Both the position numbers and the translations under genes were made by a program. From IMG/VR virus record IMGVR_UViG_3300019758_000009, positions 15,800-79,799 of that record: DNA of 64,000 nucleotides. One strand, given 5' to 3'. This stretch comes from a virus. Position 1 is the first letter of the stretch. Each line of letters begins with the position of its first letter. Positions 7,000 to 56,415 of this stretch are shown piece by piece. The notes beneath the pieces were generated by a model. It made no database searches and had not been told where the DNA came from. It worked only from the letters and a program-made list of their open reading frames with translations.

Positions 7000-8301
7000 A
7001 TGCCAGAAATAAAATCAAAAGACTTTTCTACCGCCGACAACCCAGTAGTCGGAATGGATGAGGCCACCCTGCATTCGGTGTACAAGACTTCAAAGAAAGT
7101 CATACAGGAGTATGTAAGGGAAATAGAACGACACAATAGATACAAAACGGCCAGAGCAGATTTTTCTACGAAGGTAATTATGGATAACCGCGCGGCCCTA
7201 ATCGATCTTTACGAGGCATGCATGCAGCAGGATGCCCATATGAAAAGCGTTATTGAGACATTAGAATCTCAGGTTCTCGGAGAGCGCTATATGATGGCCA
7301 GACAAACTCAAAGTGGCCAATATGTCAAAAATATTGACGAAACGAAGAAAATTCAAGGCACCCAGTTCATAAAAATAATTAAAGGCATCCTAGAGTCGAA
7401 GCTTTATGGTTATACGTTGATCGAGCTAGGAAGAGGCACTCATCCTATTACAGGGAAATTGACTGATGTAAAACTTGTTGAAAGGAGAAACGTGTTAGCG
7501 GACCAGCATTACGTTGTGAAACGCCAAGGTCAGTACTACCCAGGGTGGGATATAAATGAACCAGCTTATGTTGATGATTATGTTCTGGTAAAAAATGATG
7601 ATCTGGGTATGTTCTCAGCAACCACTCCGCTTATACTCGCGAAGAAATTCACATTCGCTAATTACGTTAGCTTTGCACAAACGTACGGCCAGCCAATAAT
7701 TCAAGGAAAAACAGCCGATGAGGGCACTACGGCCAGGCAACAATTGGCAAATGAAATTGCCACGGCCTCAGCTCAGCGGATAATTGTTACCGGCCTACAA
7801 GATGAGTTAAGTGTTCACGCTTTAGCTATGTCTAATTCAGAAAAGATATACACAAGTTTGGTGGATATGGTAAATGCTGAAGTTTCAAACTTAGTCTTAG
7901 GGTCAGAATCTATGGCTGGAGCTACACAGAGTTATGTTGGATCATCCAATGCCCATCAGGATATATTCAGAGATAGAATTGAGGTTTATCGTGAATACAT
8001 TGAGAACATAATGAATGAAGAGATAATTCCAAGACTTGTTAAGAAAGGCATGCTTGAGCCTGGCAATGAATTTAAATACGCCAACAAACTTGAGATGTCT
8101 AACGAGGACCGGATCAAACTTTACAACTTCATAACCGACAAATACAATGTTACTCCTGAAGAAATAGAAAAAGAATTTGGTATAGTCGTTGGTTCCCAGT
8201 TCAACGCGGCAATCGCTGCTGCTACTAACGAAAACCAAAAGCCAGCCACAACGAAATTGAAAAAAGTTGAGGCCAAGGTAAATTTTCTGACGAGGAAGTA
8301 G
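7000..8301 (+). CDS. Portal protein (Mu gp29/DUF935-like)
   Basis: R..LIDLYE...D.H..S; ILESKLYGYTLIEL; FAQTYGQP; NAEVS.LVLG; H...IMNEEIIPRL. It is the first gene of the head module. Confidence 0.85.
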   Translation: MPEIKSKDFSTADNPVVGMDEATLHSVYKTSKKVIQEYVREIERHNRYKTARADFSTKVIMDNRAALIDLYEACMQQDAHMKSVIETLESQVLGERYMMARQTQSGQYVKNIDETKKIQGTQFIKIIKGILESKLYGYTLIELGRGTHPITGKLTDVKLVERRNVLADQHYVVKRQGQYYPGWDINEPAYVDDYVLVKNDDLGMFSATTPLILAKKFTFANYVSFAQTYGQPIIQGKTADEGTTARQQLANEIATASAQRIIVTGLQDELSVHALAMSNSEKIYTSLVDMVNAEVSNLVLGSESMAGATQSYVGSSNAHQDIFRDRIEVYREYIENIMNEEIIPRLVKKGMLEPGNEFKYANKLEMSNEDRIKLYNFITDKYNVTPEEIEKEFGIVVGSQFNAAIAAATNENQKPATTKLKKVEAKVNFLTRK

Positions 8302-8320
8302 ACGGGTCTACTGCTTCCTC
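8280..8320 (+). other. Predicted -1 programmed ribosomal frameshift signal (portal to gpF-like)
   Basis: In-frame slippery heptamer A AAT TTT (8280-8286), a 5-nt spacer and a hairpin GAGGAAGTAGAC-GG-GTCTACTGCTTCCTC. The -1 frame is open into ORF 8361. Confidence 0.7.
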
Positions 8321-8360
8321 TATTGAATCGATCACAGCCAAGATCTCAGATTTTTACAAT

Positions 8361-9215
8361 GTGCAGGCTGAAGCATCGAAAAATGACCTTGATGGAATAA
8401 AGGACATCACAAACGACGAGTACGTTACCTTATTAGCTATTTTAAGAGGGTTTTTAGAGGATTTCTATAACAATCCATCTCTATATATGACCCATACAGA
8501 ATTAATGGAACAGAGGGCTGTATTCGCTCTTAATCATGCATTCAATGGTTACGGGTTATCTTTTGAGAGAGCTATGAACATCGTGAAGCTTGAAAATAAC
8601 GACGGTTTAACGGATATCCAAATCGAAGAACGGGACATGCTTATAGGCCTGATAGATAACATCATAAACTTCTCGGTTGCCGCTGAGCATCAAACGTTAA
8701 TGAGTATATCTGAAGACAGAGAAAAGTCTGTAGATATGGAAGAATTTATGATTACGGCCATCAATACATTTTCCAAATACAACAAGACTTACGCAGGTAT
8801 TGAGAATGAAGATATTTTCTTTGCATTAGGATTGGCAGCTGAATGGCTTAGGTTCGATGCTGAAACGATACTTCAATTCACAACTCAAGGCGATGAGAGA
8901 GTAAGGGATTCTCACAACGCCATAAATGGGCTAAGATACAGGAAGAAGGACTTCCCAGCTGCTTTGATACCCCCAATTGACCATGGGTGCAGGTGCTATT
9001 TGATTGATACAGGATCGACCGATGGTCGCAAGCTTACTAATAAGCCGAATGTATCAAAACTAATAGACGACGCTACAAACCCAGCCTTTAAATACAACGT
9101 GGCCACTTCTGGCCAAATGTTTGGTGAAGACCATCCGTATTTTGAGATTGGTAGCTCATATTTATCTATACTGGGAGCTACGGTGACCAAGATAAAAAGC
9201 AACTTAGGTTTATGA
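8361..9215 (+). CDS. Minor head protein, Mu gpF/SPP1 gp7-like (frame open from 8280)
   Basis: TQGDERVRDSH..NG...PPIDHGCRC and F..N...F...HPYF. Confidence 0.85.
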   Translation: MQAEASKNDLDGIKDITNDEYVTLLAILRGFLEDFYNNPSLYMTHTELMEQRAVFALNHAFNGYGLSFERAMNIVKLENNDGLTDIQIEERDMLIGLIDNIINFSVAAEHQTLMSISEDREKSVDMEEFMITAINTFSKYNKTYAGIENEDIFFALGLAAEWLRFDAETILQFTTQGDERVRDSHNAINGLRYRKKDFPAALIPPIDHGCRCYLIDTGSTDGRKLTNKPNVSKLIDDATNPAFKYNVATSGQMFGEDHPYFEIGSSYLSILGATVTKIKSNLGL

Positions 9216-9652
9216 GAATGTTAAAGCCTGACCAATTTCTGCGTGAGCTCCGGAATATGCAAAGTAAATTCGAAACAGAGCTATTCCGGGCCAGACAAGA
9301 AATCGGAACCTATGCCGTAAACCACTTCCAGTCATCCTTCAGTAAAGGAGGATTTGCTGGAGGAGGTAGTTCCTGGAGAGATAGAGAACATTCTTATTCT
9401 CATAAAATGCTAGACAAAACAGGAAGTATGAAAGAGGCTATTAATTTTAGAGCTTACAATACGTCTAACAATATTGTCGTATCAGCCACTAAGTCGTATG
9501 CAAGATTCCATAACGATCCGGATGGGTCATGGGCTAGAAATCAACACACAAGCAAGACCACACTGCAAAGGCAGTTTATAGGCAACTCAAGGCCTATGGA
9601 GCTGTGGATCAAAAGCAGATTGCAGGCGATGCTAACAAATACATTTAGATAA
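9212..9652 (+). CDS. Virion morphogenesis / neck protein (Mu gpG-like)
   Basis: F..GF...W...LDKTG.M...I; YARFHN; QRQFIGNS. Confidence 0.75.
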   Translation: MRMLKPDQFLRELRNMQSKFETELFRARQEIGTYAVNHFQSSFSKGGFAGGGSSWRDREHSYSHKMLDKTGSMKEAINFRAYNTSNNIVVSATKSYARFHNDPDGSWARNQHTSKTTLQRQFIGNSRPMELWIKSRLQAMLTNTFR

Positions 9653-10263
9653 TGAAGGAATTATATTTAGCGATAAAAGAAATCATCTTAAACATACCCG
9701 ATATATCGGACCCTACTCAAAAAATGTTTAAGACAGTAAAGATAGACAAAGGACAATTCCAGAGAGTGATCAGTAACGTGGAGAACGAAGAGATGGGCAT
9801 AATTTTCCCTGCTGTATTTATACATTTTGTAAATGTATCTTATCTTGTAAGTCAGAACCATATAGGGGAAGGCAGAGGTACAATGAGAGTTAGGTTTGTA
9901 CTAGATAGATTGAATGACCAGGAGGATGAATTCGAGACAGAAATCTTTGACTACGCAGCAATAATCAACGCTGCAATTCAGGATGCTAGGAACACCAACG
10001 CCCAACTAGGAGAAAGGTGTGACCTCCAATATTTCGACATGCCAGAATCAGTTTCCAGAGGACTACAACCATGCTGGCTTGATTACGGTGTTAATTTTAG
10101 AGATATGTCCGCGTTCACGTTCAGAGATTATATCAAAAAGACTATCGCAACACCAGCCCATACAAACTTCTCAGACATGACAGAGGAAAATAGAGACGGT
10201 AGAGTAGATGTGATAGTAGATATACCGACTCAATCAAAGATGAGAGACGAAATATCTGAATAA
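9652..10263 (+). CDS. Putative tail completion / neck protein
   Basis: MKELYLAIKE...FPAVFIHF, and its position after the gpG-like gene. Confidence 0.5.
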   Translation: MKELYLAIKEIILNIPDISDPTQKMFKTVKIDKGQFQRVISNVENEEMGIIFPAVFIHFVNVSYLVSQNHIGEGRGTMRVRFVLDRLNDQEDEFETEIFDYAAIINAAIQDARNTNAQLGERCDLQYFDMPESVSRGLQPCWLDYGVNFRDMSAFTFRDYIKKTIATPAHTNFSDMTEENRDGRVDVIVDIPTQSKMRDEISE

Positions 10264-49415: not shown

Positions 49416-49594
49416 TAGATGTAACTAAAAGACAACCATTTTGCAATAACTGTATTCATGCAAAAGAGATATCCTCAACAAGGAGAGGGGGTACTTCGTA
49501 TAAATGCAGTAAAATAGATTATAAGTTCAAGAGCTATTGGTTAAAGACAAGAGCTTCTGAGTGTAAACTTTTTAAAGACAAAAGAGATGAGTGA
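49412..49594 (+). CDS. Small Cys-rich protein
   Basis: CNNCIH...C...C, with ATGA-type overlaps to its neighbours. Confidence 0.5.
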   Translation: MIDVTKRQPFCNNCIHAKEISSTRRGGTSYKCSKIDYKFKSYWLKTRASECKLFKDKRDE

Positions 49595-51353
49595 TACTAT
49601 ACTAAGCTTTAAGGAAAAATTCGAAGCGTGGATGCTCGACAATATGATGGCTTACAAATTCGTGGAGGATGATATAATTGACATCCCTGAGTTTGGAAAG
49701 CTTTATTTTTTTGACAGCGAAGCGCAAGAAGGTGTATTTTCAGATAAAAACAAAAAAGGCGAAATGAATCTCGAACTACCTGTACCGGCAGGAGAGTTGA
49801 TTGACGATAATGTGTTTTACGCCATACTTAAATGGGGTAATGGGTTTTATTATACAGACCTGAGAGAAGATGTCACTCTTCAGCCCTTAAAGTATCTCGG
49901 TAAATGCGTTATCCCTAAGCCTAAGATTGACTATGTAAACCTCGGTATACATAGTCCATTTGAGCTTCTTGAAGGGTCATTTTTACCTAAAGAGTGGATA
50001 AAAAAAGCCAAATTCTTCGGCCACAACACCATTGGTATTTGCGATAAAAACACCATGGGAGGGACACTACCGCTTCAAAAGGCATGCAAGAAGGAGGATA
50101 TGGAATTTGTGTTTGGCTACTCCCTGGAAGTTAGGCTTCCAGAGCATGAAGAGCTGATGTTTGAGGGAAAGGTTTATTGCTCCACTGATGAGGGGTGGAG
50201 TAATATGCTGAGGATTCAAAAGGCCGTGATGGTTGATAACCACGAGGATCCCCATATATCTCTGGATGAATTACTGGACAGAGGTAAAGGAAATGTGTTT
50301 GTTTTTGATAAGTTATCATCAAAAGTAATAGATGACCACACTATAGAAAAGATCGAAAGAGCGTTCGATAAAATCTTCTACCAGCTTGACTTAACAGAGT
50401 ACAAGGCTGATAGGTTTGATAAAGAAGTTCTTGAGTCTATTGATGTTTATTTGAAAAAATGGAAAGATCAGATCCCCCCAGTTCTCATTTGTGATAACTA
50501 TTATCTTGACCACTCAGACGCTAAGAACAAGATAATATTAAACAAGATAGCCTCTGGGACAGCCAAAAAACAAAGTGACCAGCAGTACTATAAGCATATA
50601 TCTGAACATATATCCGTTATTAGGGATTTATTCAATGTTCATAATGGTGAAAATGCTGAACATATTGAGAATTATATGCTAGATTTGATCCACGAAAGTG
50701 CAAAAAACACATTTGTTATAGCCGATTTAGCTAAGGCTGAGATTGACACAGGAAGCATATACATGCCTGAGTATGAAATGAAACCCAGCGAAGTCACTAA
50801 GTATGGGGATAAGCACAGTATGTTTTTATCCTTATTAGACGAAGGTTTTGATAAGTTGGTGCCAAATGGCGTGGGTGATAAGTACACAGAACAGCTTGAC
50901 AGGGAGATATATATCATAGAATCAACTAACAATATTGACTACTTCTTAGTTACTTGGGATACCGTAAACTGGGCCAGGGAAAACGGCATTCAAATCGGTT
51001 CAGCCAGGGGGTCTGCTGGAGGGAGTTTAGTTTCATATTTGCTAGGTATCACAACTATTGACCCTATTACTTATGATCTGATATTTGAGCGATTCCTAAC
51101 TCCGGAGCGATGTGGTTTGCAGCCTCAGGATGTAACCATTGTAGGTGACGACGTAGAGGTTCTTAAAGGTGAAGACTATATATCCATAGAGACCGAAGAA
51201 GGTGTGCTGAATGTCCTCCCAGAGTCCGAGCTAATGATAAAGAGAGGAGATGAAACGATAGAAGTAAGGGCAGACGAGCTGGAAGAAGAGGATGAGATTG
51301 TTATCGACTCAAGAGATCAATTGTGGGAAATTAATAAGGTTATCATAAAATAA
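49587..51353 (+). CDS. dnaE: DNA polymerase III alpha, N-terminal subunit (PHP plus start of palm) ending in an intein-N-like segment
   Basis: HSPFELLEGS, YFLV.WD, GSARGSAGGSLVSYLLGIT.IDP and FERFLTPER. Confidence 0.92.
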   Translation: MSDTILSFKEKFEAWMLDNMMAYKFVEDDIIDIPEFGKLYFFDSEAQEGVFSDKNKKGEMNLELPVPAGELIDDNVFYAILKWGNGFYYTDLREDVTLQPLKYLGKCVIPKPKIDYVNLGIHSPFELLEGSFLPKEWIKKAKFFGHNTIGICDKNTMGGTLPLQKACKKEDMEFVFGYSLEVRLPEHEELMFEGKVYCSTDEGWSNMLRIQKAVMVDNHEDPHISLDELLDRGKGNVFVFDKLSSKVIDDHTIEKIERAFDKIFYQLDLTEYKADRFDKEVLESIDVYLKKWKDQIPPVLICDNYYLDHSDAKNKIILNKIASGTAKKQSDQQYYKHISEHISVIRDLFNVHNGENAEHIENYMLDLIHESAKNTFVIADLAKAEIDTGSIYMPEYEMKPSEVTKYGDKHSMFLSLLDEGFDKLVPNGVGDKYTEQLDREIYIIESTNNIDYFLVTWDTVNWARENGIQIGSARGSAGGSLVSYLLGITTIDPITYDLIFERFLTPERCGLQPQDVTIVGDDVEVLKGEDYISIETEEGVLNVLPESELMIKRGDETIEVRADELEEEDEIVIDSRDQLWEINKVIIK

Positions 51354-51360
51354 CAGTATC

Positions 51361-53562
51361 ATGAAAATAAAAACAGTAAAGAGAATTATAGCAAAAAAGC
51401 CTGTTGTTGTGACTGATATGTTAATAGACGAGGGGTTCCGGCCTGGAGGTCGAGTATCCCTTCCTGATATCGATATTGATTACGCATCAGATGGCAGATT
51501 AAAAGTCAAATCATACATAGAAGAAAGATACAACAGTGATGGCACTCAAAATGTCTTTTCTGCTGGAAACTTAACAACCTTGAAGATGAAAGCGGCCCTA
51601 AAAGATGTATGTAAGGTACATCGGGTACCGTATGCTTTAGCTAACTACACTACTGCAATGATCAAGGATGACGGTATGACATGGACAGGCTTATTTAAAG
51701 AGTGTATGGTTAACAAAAAAATGAAAAAGTTTGTTAATGACTACCCTAAGGCTATCGAGGATATTAGGTCCATCATGAACCAGCCAAGATCCACGTCTAT
51801 CCACGCTTCAGCTGTTATCGTAACACCTAAATTTAAAGATGGAAAACGAGTAGAATGTTTTGATTATCTGCCTTTAAGAATTATGGATGGATTGCTTGTT
51901 AGCGAGTTTGATGGTTATTCAGTGGAAGAGATTGGACTTCTAAAGAACGATGTATTGGCCACTAAAGAGCTAATGAAGATCAGAAATACTATTAATCTCG
52001 TAAATGAAAACTATCCATACAAAATCAAGGAAATGATGAGCCATGTAGAAGGAGAGGACATCCTAACTATGGAAGCTATACATACCAAGATGACAAACGA
52101 TAAAGGGGCGTTTTCGTTATTTAGTAACGGCTACACCCAGAACATCTTTCAGTTTTCAGGTAGAGGTATGACGAAATTTGTATCCGATATGGGGCTTGAT
52201 TCTATTGATGACATAACAGCAGCAAATGCCTTGTATAGGCCAGCAACTATTGATATAAAGGCCCACGAGGACTACATCAGGTATAAAAGAGGCGAAGCTA
52301 CACCTACCTATAACTGGGGGACGTATGATAGCACTTCAGAGACTCACGGTATTATGGCCTACCAAGAGCAGATGATGAGGATATCTCAAACAGTAGGGGG
52401 CTTTTCATTATCTAAAGCTGATGTATTAAGAAAGGCTATCGGTAAGAAGAATACCGAAATCATGGCATCACTAAAGCGGGATTTTATAGATGGAGCTGTA
52501 GCCAACCAGTGCCCTGTGGCAGAAGCTAAAGATATATGGCGCAAAATTGAATTGGCTGGAAGGTACTCTTTTAACAAGTCTCACGCAGCAGCGTACGGCC
52601 TAATCGCCTATGACGGGGCATGGCTGAAATCGAATTTCCCAACAGCATTTTATACTGTCGCCCTGCAATTTTGCAAGGATGAAGATATAAAGGTGCTTAT
52701 GGGAGAAATGAGTGAAATATCAAACTGTCAAATTGTGCCTCCAGACGTGAACGTTTCCGGTCTTGAGTTTTTCACAAACTATGACACGGATGAGATATTC
52801 TGGTCATTGTCTAGAATTAAGTTTGTCGGAGCTAAAGCCGTCAACTCCATAATTGAAGACAGAGTTGAGTTCGGTGCATTTACTAGCATTGAAGACTTTT
52901 ATATTCGAATGCAAGCTAGATCAGTAAGCGATAAGGCCGCCTCAATAAAAAACGGCGATAGGTACACAAATCCAGTGAACTCTAGGACTATAAAGAATAT
53001 GATACTAACTGGATGCTTTGATAATATCGAAAACACCAAAGAAGTTAGTGATAGGTTTTTTATTTTAGAGAAATTCTACACCTTAATAGGGGGAGAGATT
53101 GACACTGAAGACTTTCCAGGTGAAATGATAGACAAGCATTATTTCTGGTCTATGCTACAGGTTGAGCTCTCTGGATTAGGGTCTGTGGATTACCGAAGGA
53201 TATTCAACAACTCTAAATCGAGATTGGAAATGAAAAAGACCCCATATCTAAGCCTTAAGGATGCCCTAGATATGGAAAACGAAGGCAGGAGATGCGCTGT
53301 TTGTGCTACAGTTGTAGATATTTCTGAGAAGTCAGGAAAAACAAAGAAAGGAGACCCCTATTTATTTGGCAAGGTACAACTGCAGCAAAATAATGAAACT
53401 ATCGAATGCACTATTTGGAATGATACATGGATACAGAAAAAGCCATTACTAGCAGATGCTAAAGGTAAAGTGGTGGTAATAAATGGTAATTTGAAATATA
53501 ATTCATTCTCTAACGGCAACGCAATGACATGCGGGTCAAGTGTTGTTATTGAGATAATCTAA
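51361..53562 (+). CDS. dnaE: DNA polymerase III alpha, C-terminal subunit beginning with an intein-C-like segment
   Basis: SLPDIDID, SIHASAV, GLLKND.L, FQF, ALYRP, YQEQ.M, YSFNKSHA and a C-terminal OB fold. Confidence 0.93.
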   Translation: MKIKTVKRIIAKKPVVVTDMLIDEGFRPGGRVSLPDIDIDYASDGRLKVKSYIEERYNSDGTQNVFSAGNLTTLKMKAALKDVCKVHRVPYALANYTTAMIKDDGMTWTGLFKECMVNKKMKKFVNDYPKAIEDIRSIMNQPRSTSIHASAVIVTPKFKDGKRVECFDYLPLRIMDGLLVSEFDGYSVEEIGLLKNDVLATKELMKIRNTINLVNENYPYKIKEMMSHVEGEDILTMEAIHTKMTNDKGAFSLFSNGYTQNIFQFSGRGMTKFVSDMGLDSIDDITAANALYRPATIDIKAHEDYIRYKRGEATPTYNWGTYDSTSETHGIMAYQEQMMRISQTVGGFSLSKADVLRKAIGKKNTEIMASLKRDFIDGAVANQCPVAEAKDIWRKIELAGRYSFNKSHAAAYGLIAYDGAWLKSNFPTAFYTVALQFCKDEDIKVLMGEMSEISNCQIVPPDVNVSGLEFFTNYDTDEIFWSLSRIKFVGAKAVNSIIEDRVEFGAFTSIEDFYIRMQARSVSDKAASIKNGDRYTNPVNSRTIKNMILTGCFDNIENTKEVSDRFFILEKFYTLIGGEIDTEDFPGEMIDKHYFWSMLQVELSGLGSVDYRRIFNNSKSRLEMKKTPYLSLKDALDMENEGRRCAVCATVVDISEKSGKTKKGDPYLFGKVQLQQNNETIECTIWNDTWIQKKPLLADAKGKVVVINGNLKYNSFSNGNAMTCGSSVVIEII

Positions 53563-55815: not shown

Positions 55816-56415
55816 ATGAAAAAATTATCTAGACCAGAAGCGGCTGTAACCGCTTTTAAAATTGTTTTAGGGAAAGATATCAACGAAGATATCATAGGGG
55901 GTTATTACAATAATGTTGTAAACTCAAAGGCCATGTTTAATCATGTGTCTTCTTTTATAGATACCGATATCGTCACTCCAGACGCAATTATCGCAGCCGC
56001 TAACACCCTTATTCCCGTCATCATAGACCAAGACGCTAAACGCGTTGAAAAGGAAAAAATTGAAGCGCCATTCGCTCTACAGGTAGAGGAGACGGTCAAA
56101 ATGGTATTTGTAAAGAACACAGGCATCTCTACTGATGTAGTGTCTATATCAGGCTATCCTATAAGCCCATTACTTGAAGGAGTTTGGAGGAAAGTCCGGG
56201 AGATAGCTTCAAGCACCTCTGGAGTGCGACCTTCTAGCGTTTTCCTTCACAGCTCATTGTTTAGCGACTTAGGTATGGACAGCTTGGATTATGTTGAATT
56301 CTTAATGAACTGTGAGTCAGAATTCAGAGTGTCACTAGCTGCCCATGAGGAAGGTGATAATGTCCTTGCTGTATGCGAGGCAATATGTAGAGAACTTACA
56401 AACAAAAACAAATAG
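55816..56415 (+). CDS. Protein with a C-terminal acyl-carrier (phosphopantetheine-binding) domain
   Basis: VREI...LFSDLGMDSLDYVEFLMNCESEFRV. Confidence 0.75.
   Translation: MKKLSRPEAAVTAFKIVLGKDINEDIIGGYYNNVVNSKAMFNHVSSFIDTDIVTPDAIIAAANTLIPVIIDQDAKRVEKEKIEAPFALQVEETVKMVFVKNTGISTDVVSISGYPISPLLEGVWRKVREIASSTSGVRPSSVFLHSSLFSDLGMDSLDYVEFLMNCESEFRVSLAAHEEGDNVLAVCEAICRELTNKNK

Follow-up and report, generated by a model that had tools for sequence, protein, structure and literature searches.

We describe a two-gene DnaE, the alpha subunit of DNA polymerase III (Pol III alpha), in a 64,000-nucleotide stretch of DNA (the window; positions 15800-79799 of IMG/VR record IMGVR_UViG_3300019758_000009) from an uncultured, Bacteroidota-type phage of ~80 kb. 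The record is 79.8 kb long, with a CheckV completeness of 72%. The gene break lies inside the palm domain, and the broken ends carry an acidic tail and a basic head that recur in hundreds of relatives, are under purifying selection, lack the residues of protein splicing and are predicted to form a HINT-like domain. We consider it probable that this DnaE works as two chains in which the dead, HINT-fold tail and head dock non-covalently, and that the resulting module stays in the enzyme and rebuilds the palm.

Under this explanation, the sole replicative polymerase of the phage would be produced as two polypeptides, broken inside a palm insertion of ~112 residues that consists of the 80-aa tail of chain 1 and the 32-aa head of chain 2. 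The insertion would be a shortened HINT module, most likely derived from a mini or split intein that has lost all of its splicing residues. After translation, tail and head would dock into one beta-rich domain, much as the halves of split inteins do, with their opposite charges helping. No peptide bond would be formed or cut; the module would remain in the mature enzyme and bring the two palm parts together. Docking in vivo, the absence of splicing and a need for the module in assembly or activity are what we infer from the evidence below.

A DnaE broken beside its catalytic aspartates

The two open reading frames (ORFs) together are a DnaE, encoding a PHP domain, a palm with its Asp pair, fingers and a HhH region. 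Pfam recognizes PHP (1.2e-09) and DNA_pol3_alpha (PF07733; 1.6e-31, profile positions 4-100) in the N-half, and DNA_pol3_alpha (93-260), DNA_pol3_finger and HHH_6 in the C-half. A match to PHROG 13169 spans N-half residues 119-571, tail included. A six-frame scan of the whole record found no second DnaE.

The initial annotation had reported a DnaE motif cut between two genes 7 nt apart, and this is what the sequence contains (Table 1). Gene 2 lies in the +1 frame relative to gene 1. In FERFLTPER, the last extein motif of the N-half, F500, R502, F503, L504, P506 and R508 are invariant or nearly so among 122 relatives. The motif is followed, also as first described, by Cys509 and 79 further residues in which 24 D/E stand against 7 K/R. 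Gene 2 begins MKIKTVKRIIAKKPVVVTD, with RVSLPDIDIDY at residues 31-41; its 32-residue head opens with MKIKTVKRIIAKK and closes with GGRV, directly before SLPDIDIDY, and the C-half extein after the final V of the head reads SLPDIDIDYASDGR. Aligned to E. coli Pol III alpha, the break falls between R396 and V397, four residues ahead of D401 and D403, the catalytic Asp residues of Pol III alpha, which phmmer aligns with D36 and D38 of gene 2. The FNKSH and YQEQ motifs of the C-half are uninterrupted, so that the cyanobacterial split site (FNKSH) is indeed intact in gene 2, as had been stated.

A predicted HINT-like fold

The tail and head had been likened to the N- and C-halves of an intein. Structure prediction bears out this likeness: a HINT-like fold for tail plus head is well supported by the models. 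As a stand-in for the window we folded its relative L049, in which a 36-nt in-frame spacer, with its two TGA codons read as Gly, supplies a natural linker of 13 residues. The input alignment for this model (A5) kept N and C rows separate; A5 and A7 were inspected before folding, and A3, A4 and A6 were left out because they placed heads on tail columns. In the joined AlphaFold model, tail and head reach a pLDDT of 93-98 and the linker 52-61, and the head forms a long hairpin (96-97) beside the strands of the tail. Foldseek assigned the flanks of this model to Pol III alpha and the remainder almost solely to inteins, hedgehog and BIL domains, with probabilities of ~1.0 for the top inteins; VIA-align gave Z scores of 4-6.4 across model residues ~115-236.

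Two further predictions agree. An AlphaFold model of the L049 module by itself (mean pLDDT 64, core ~80) was compared by VIA-align with 48,161 PDB representatives: the top 28 were all HINT (Z 7.8-3.2), as were all 21 chains with Z of at least 5, and the best non-HINT fold scored 3.1. In the ESM Atlas, which comes from an independent predictor and includes a model of the window's own protein, the extra-family neighbours of the tail (residues 509-588) were PT-HINT, Hint_2 and Intein_splicing clusters, at TM by query of 0.65-0.74. The module is thus a predicted structural member of the HINT superfamily.

At the level of sequence, the matches of tail profiles to inteins are weak but specific. The window tail alone matches PF14890 (Intein_splicing) with an E value of 0.061 and 13.6 bits; the cut-off is 35.8, and no HINT or intein model matched the tail at its curated threshold. 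The tail of Bacteroides phage BS-TP1 does better (E 0.00096, profile positions 48-95), and 19 of 36 tails match PF14890 at E<1, the best at 8.9e-05 and still under the cut-off. In the whole phage record, the sole PF14890 match is the tail (window 51186-51368, E 0.0027). When a profile built from the 36 tails was compared with the PDB, five of the six matches were inteins (5o9j, 2lcj, 2jmz, 2cw7 and 9hth; E 0.018-0.17), and all five put tail positions 17-66 on the block B region. Pfam found no intein match on the L049 module read through its spacer. Separately, a phmmer extension had raised the idea that the second half of the head is a duplicated extein segment; it was rejected, with an hhalign score of 6.7 against 6.5 ± 1.7 in column-shuffled controls.

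Loss of the splicing residues

The initial annotation found the block B TxxH, the block F His and the terminal His-Asn all to be absent. This proved correct, and the canonical splicing residues are missing family-wide. In a profile alignment to inteins, the family has D-K-D-A, and the window L-P-E-S, at the TxxH position. The window has no block F His and no His-Asn before SLPD, and none of 50 distinct heads has Asn, Gln or Asp at its last position; heads end in GGRV in the window and in GxGG or GGHS in relatives. The invariant Asp of the head is followed by a variable residue (C, T, S, M or L; D-M in the window). Neither the block B Thr-x-x-His and C-terminal (His-)Asn of class 1 inteins nor, with the residue register judged by eye, the block F Cys with Trp-Cys-Thr of class 3 was found. 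Judged by block B and the C-terminal Asn, the module is outside the splicing inteins.

Directly behind PER, 116 of 122 close relatives have Cys. Among 57 distinct viral tails, Ala predominates at this position (43 tails), and Ser, Gly or Met also occur; on the tree, lineages with C are interspersed with lineages with A. The window gene has R-C-G-L at the place where R-(I/V/L)-G-K-S-L-P-D stands in unsplit DnaEs, so that Cys509 and the invariant Gly-Leu may belong to the extein. The original assignment of this Cys to an intein N-half is weakened by the variation (C/A/S/G/M) and by the alignment with extein I/V/L. Cys509 as a relic of intein Cys1 was considered and not accepted on the same grounds, since the position aligns with an extein hydrophobic residue.

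Spread, charge and selection

The arrangement is widespread. With residues 470-588 as the query, 407 clusters of ~573-583-aa N-halves with this tail were recovered, and 548 viral contigs in IMG/VR proved to share split, tail and head; because of this recurrence, the split is no assembly error. Two-gene DnaEs also occur in cultured phages, namely Bacteroides phage BS-TP1 (47% identity) and Cellulophaga phages phi13:1, phiST and phi19:2. The DnaE of Chryseobacterium phage MA9V-3 is one unbroken gene, reading FERFLNEGRVGKSLPDID.

Gene order was read from 80 fetched loci of the 548 contigs. The halves are either adjacent, overlapping or separated by a gap of at most 38 nt, or 0.5-2.5 kb apart, and most relatives have a helicase, methylase or HNH gene between them. 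This inter-half hot spot holds a Dda-like P-loop helicase of ~440 aa in many loci (L001, L008, L016, L017 and others), a DPPY DNA methylase of ~251 aa in L004, L013, L059 and L067, and ORFs of 180-198 aa, HNH/NUMOD-like as judged by eye, in L050, L080 and L082. Since genes often intervene, the halves are translated separately, and a ribosomal join is not a general solution.

Of 50 distinct relatives, 48 have a head of exactly 32 aa. The head consensus is MKVxSVKxxxSxxPVKV(L/I)D(C)FVDxGYLQGxGG, then SLPDVD, and Asp19 is invariant. The contrast between an acidic tail and a basic head, reported earlier for the window, turns out to be family-wide: tails have a mean net charge of -11.5 (window, -17), and the first 16 head residues a mean of +2.9 (window, +6). 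Across three divergence bins, pairwise dN/dS was 0.07-0.15 in the tail, 0.2-0.47 in the head and 0.02-0.05 in the flanking extein, for pairs that are non-independent and a head that is short. These values are well below 1, and therefore the module is being maintained by selection and is not decaying. That the module is what joins the two chains, as the initial annotation had proposed, we infer from its conservation and its dN/dS.

States of the split site among DnaE homologs

A hidden Markov model (HMM) search over 1.84 billion representatives used a profile of the whole N-half (597 positions, with four full-length rows included), and we use its output to chart what occupies the split site; it does not amount to a search for tails. 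We classed 154 representatives: 68 have no insert, 49 are split with a short tail of 45-65 aa (the Cellulophaga type), 19 are split with a long tail (the window type) and 13 carry a contiguous insert of 43-94 aa without splicing residues; four are unclear and one is truncated.

The single-chain DnaEs with a contiguous insert include P0132, P0148, P0184, P0219, P0249 and P0136/P0137/P0140. P0132, one chain of 1257 aa, combines PERCGL and a window-like tail with a shortened head. According to Pfam these proteins are complete DnaEs, and therefore a dead insert at this site is compatible with an unspliced enzyme. A word-based search for longer fused tail proteins had found none; the full HMM search later recovered the contiguous forms.

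On a quick FastTree of the N-half (50%-identity representatives), 17 of the 19 long-type proteins, including all window-like ones, cluster in a single block that borders on contiguous forms. Elsewhere on the tree, presence and absence of the insert change 42 times, compared with 49.5 for shuffled labels (minimum 39), and 27 well-supported small clades mix the two states. This scattered distribution fits the pattern expected of a mobile element. The kinship of short and long types rests on their shared site and on a shared V-x-R...(A)-x-x-L-x-x-G-D motif. We hold as a tentative extension of our explanation that a dead split intein was kept as an obligatory, non-covalent assembly domain of the polymerase, while its shorter relatives are still a mobile, gene-splitting cassette in which re-association has replaced splicing.

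Origin and role of the module

An intein ancestry of the module is probable. Several observations weigh against it, or against the role that we propose. The fold model comes from a 45%-identical relative joined via its own spacer. The structural Z scores are middling, with a maximum of 7.8, and the sequence matches to intein models lie below the Pfam gathering score. The module has ~110 residues, compared with ~130 or more in the smallest inteins, and the structural alignments suggest that both termini of the canonical HINT fold have been trimmed. When the joined tail and head were compared by hhalign with mini-inteins from three relatives, the probability was 1.5%; this uninformative comparison aligned the second half of the tail to the first half of the intein, possibly through the internal pseudo-symmetry of HINT. 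Short-type and contiguous inserts give no Pfam intein signal, so that intein ancestry rests on the long type. Finally, in the split NrdA of Aeromonas phage Aeh1, the novel tails are essential for activity but dispensable for formation of the heterodimer (Crona et al. 2011, PMC3045599); a role as a clasp is thus not implied by conservation alone.

The principal alternative on origin is that a small, beta-rich insertion domain of the DnaE lineage resembles HINT by chance, and that the gene was later split inside it. We judge this rather improbable. The top structural neighbours are without exception HINT, and sequence profiles picked inteins independently. Moreover, the site adjoins the active site, and the break occupies a position typical of natural split inteins and their endonucleases; the near-random presence of the insert on the DnaE tree fits a mobile element, and some relatives have HNH genes between the halves. 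The case for chance resemblance draws on the middling Z scores, on short tails and contiguous inserts that have no Pfam intein match, on the alignment of Cys509 with an extein residue and on the lack of conserved catalytic residues throughout the family.

A second alternative concerns the role of the module. It may be a conserved structural insert, the chains being held chiefly by the palm's own interface and the tail and head kept for some other reason, such as avoiding an exposed half-domain, positioning the catalytic loop or binding another replisome protein. We regard this as unlikely, though less so than chance resemblance to HINT. Aeh1 NrdA is a precedent for it (PMC3045599), the contiguous relatives retain a dead insert at the same site where no clasp is needed, and the head, whose dN/dS reaches 0.47, has been changing more quickly than the tail. 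A clasp is favored by the opposite charges of tail and head throughout the family, by the fixed head length of 32 aa, by the high confidence with which AlphaFold docks head on tail, and by the position of the break in mid-domain, where added affinity would help.

Covalent joining of the halves, whether by splicing through unknown chemistry or, in the window, by a ribosomal hop or frameshift over the 7-nt gap, is in our estimate highly improbable. Retention of Cys509 in 116 of 122 close relatives would suit splicing, but there is no TxxH and no C-terminal Asn, Gln or Asp, and the first residue is variable, with most viral contigs having Ala. Non-canonical splicing chemistry, which the initial annotation had left as an option, is also made unlikely by the contiguous relatives, which keep an equally dead insert in the mature enzyme. 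A ribosomal join could draw on a repeat of ATA AAA, which stands at the end of gene 1 and at codons 3-4 of gene 2 in the +1 frame, and on hop-like, stop-containing mini-inserts a few codons downstream in some relatives. The 0.5-2.5 kb of other genes between the halves of most relatives exclude such a join there, and the repeat is expected by chance in AT-rich DNA, at a tail end that is not conserved.

Comparison with known systems

A two-chain DnaE with a docked, non-splicing module would combine features of several known systems. Its nearest structural counterparts are the natural split inteins, namely those of cyanobacterial DnaE (Ssp, Npu) and of 'fractured genes' (PMC2677866), which likewise cut an essential replication gene at a conserved site. 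In these, as predicted for the window, a larger acidic N-part and a basic C-part of ~32-36 aa make up the HINT fold, and DnaE is among their known hosts. Active split inteins whose halves flank an endonuclease are described for three phage-like DnaE loci (Dassa et al. 2009, PMC2677866), and a free-standing endonuclease gene in this place is shared by fractured genes and some relatives of the window. The window itself has no endonuclease between its halves, only the 7-nt gap. Furthermore, the five splicing residues of split inteins (Cys1, the block B Thr and His, the terminal Asn and the +1 Cys; PMC2677866) appear to be missing from the window module, where Cys509 may be an extein residue. The module is also shorter (~110 aa); no ligated product would be expected, and its site differs from the cyanobacterial FNK|SH.

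The closest functional precedent is Aeh1 NrdA. There, too, a mobile element has broken a phage gene into pieces that bear novel C- and N-terminal tails, and the enzyme works without RNA or protein splicing. In contrast to the window, however, the NrdA tails are short, arose from insertion of mobE, have no intein-like fold and acted on higher-order assembly; moreover, NrdA is a single case, whereas the window-type DnaE arrangement occurs in hundreds of clusters. By analogy, the window module would resemble a split intein up to docking and the genes-in-pieces of Aeh1 NrdA thereafter. A further parallel is the yeast HO endonuclease, a domesticated, degenerate intein (bioRxiv 10.1101/2020.01.20.913210). 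Like the window module as we interpret it, HO derives from an intein, has given up splicing and was retained for a different function. HO is free-standing and kept the endonuclease function, whereas the window would have kept the splicing domain, in two pieces and inside the host enzyme.

Canonical-looking inteins occur at two other DnaE sites in relatives L004, L010, L013, L038 and L049 (Table 1), and this intein-rich background favors our explanation. Those before YQEQ have Cys1, T-x-D-H and His-Asn|Cys, and are 134-139 aa long, or 367 aa with a probable LAGLIDADG-type insert; the intein at the FNK|SH site carries an HNH domain. These inteins share with the window module the host protein, the phage clade and the general sequence pattern from the block B region to block F. 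They differ in being contiguous and in having Cys1, T-x-D/N-H and a terminal His-Asn or Cys-Asn followed by Cys or Ser. The window has no intein at either of these sites.

Inteins are usually seen as selfish elements that must splice or else kill the host gene. We found no description in the literature of a dead split HINT in DnaE or of window-type, two-gene phage DnaEs. If our explanation is correct, the module represents a third outcome for an intein, in which the chemistry was lost and the association kept, in a large phage clade that includes cultured Bacteroides and Cellulophaga phages. It would be a natural counterpart of engineered "dead split intein" dimerisers, its relatives would offer a set of small, orthogonal acidic/basic heterodimerisation pairs, and the system would be a test case for the origin and persistence of phage genes-in-pieces. 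Annotation would also be affected, since two-gene DnaEs are now labelled inconsistently ("DNA polymerase", "PHP domain-containing protein") or left unannotated. The GenBank record of BS-TP1 (L001, PQ571274.1; 7040-8668) begins in the middle of the C-half gene, has no annotated coding sequence over the tblastn match, and labels the N-half merely 'DNA polymerase'.

Feature coordinates and other observations

Table 1. Coordinates of the split DnaE in the window and of features in relatives
Feature	Position	Strand	Basis
DnaE N-half gene (PHP, first palm part, 80-aa tail)	49587..51353	+	ORF translation, 588 aa
FERFLTPER, final N-half extein motif (E. coli 388-396 equivalent)	51084..51110	+	Alignment to solved Pol III alpha
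Acidic 80-aa tail, Cys509-Lys588, bigger part of the predicted HINT-like module	51111..51350	+	
Gene 1 TAA stop and 7-nt spacer (spacer 51354-51360)	51351..51360	+	Sequence read directly
Basic 32-aa head, MKIK...GGRV, minor part of the predicted module	51361..51456	+	
Catalytic palm motif SLPDIDIDY	51457..51483	+	phmmer alignment to 2hnh, 2hpi
DnaE C-half gene (rest of palm, fingers, HhH, OB region)	51361..53562	+	733 aa
Stop-led inserts in relatives	L005:6330-6370 (same L006, L007, L009); L015:6024-6060; L023:7879-7915; L035:6345-6385; L037:7609-7645		
Canonical-looking inteins in relatives	L004:~7930-9030; L010:~8720-9120, ~9330-9880; L013:~8130-8965; L038:~7206-7622; L049:~7425-8260		

Three oddities of reading frame were seen at or near the split. 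In the window (51345-51372), gene 1 ends ATA AAA TAA, and ATA AAA recurs 22 nt downstream within gene 2. The geometry suits a ribosomal hop, yet the repeat is likely a coincidence in AT-rich DNA because the tail end is not conserved in relatives. In L049 (6211-6249), the 36-nt spacer is in frame with both genes and its only stops are the two TGA. Some gut phages recode stop codons, and a code in which TGA is sense would make the L049 DnaE one chain; this is probably chance.

The third oddity concerns five independent relatives, in which an insert of 7-12 nt that begins with a stop codon breaks the C-half frame within S-L-P-D-x-D (for example, CTT CCG [TGAGCCG] GAT ATA GAT). Excising the exact letters of the insert restores S-L-P-D-x-D in every case. 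In L005 the insert is flanked by the same CCG codon, and the downstream frame has no start codon ahead of the Asp pair. Such inserts may point to defective genomes, to a third break in the gene, or to a translational hop or frameshift. At S-L-P-D-x-D the window reads through without interruption.

The DnaE pair sits in a replication module, with a Toprim primase upstream and an RNase_T-type exonuclease downstream. The same module contains a 199-aa ORF (window 55816-56415) in which Pfam detects PF00550 (E 6.4e-07), a domain for phosphopantetheine attachment (acyl-carrier-like) and an unusual one for a phage.

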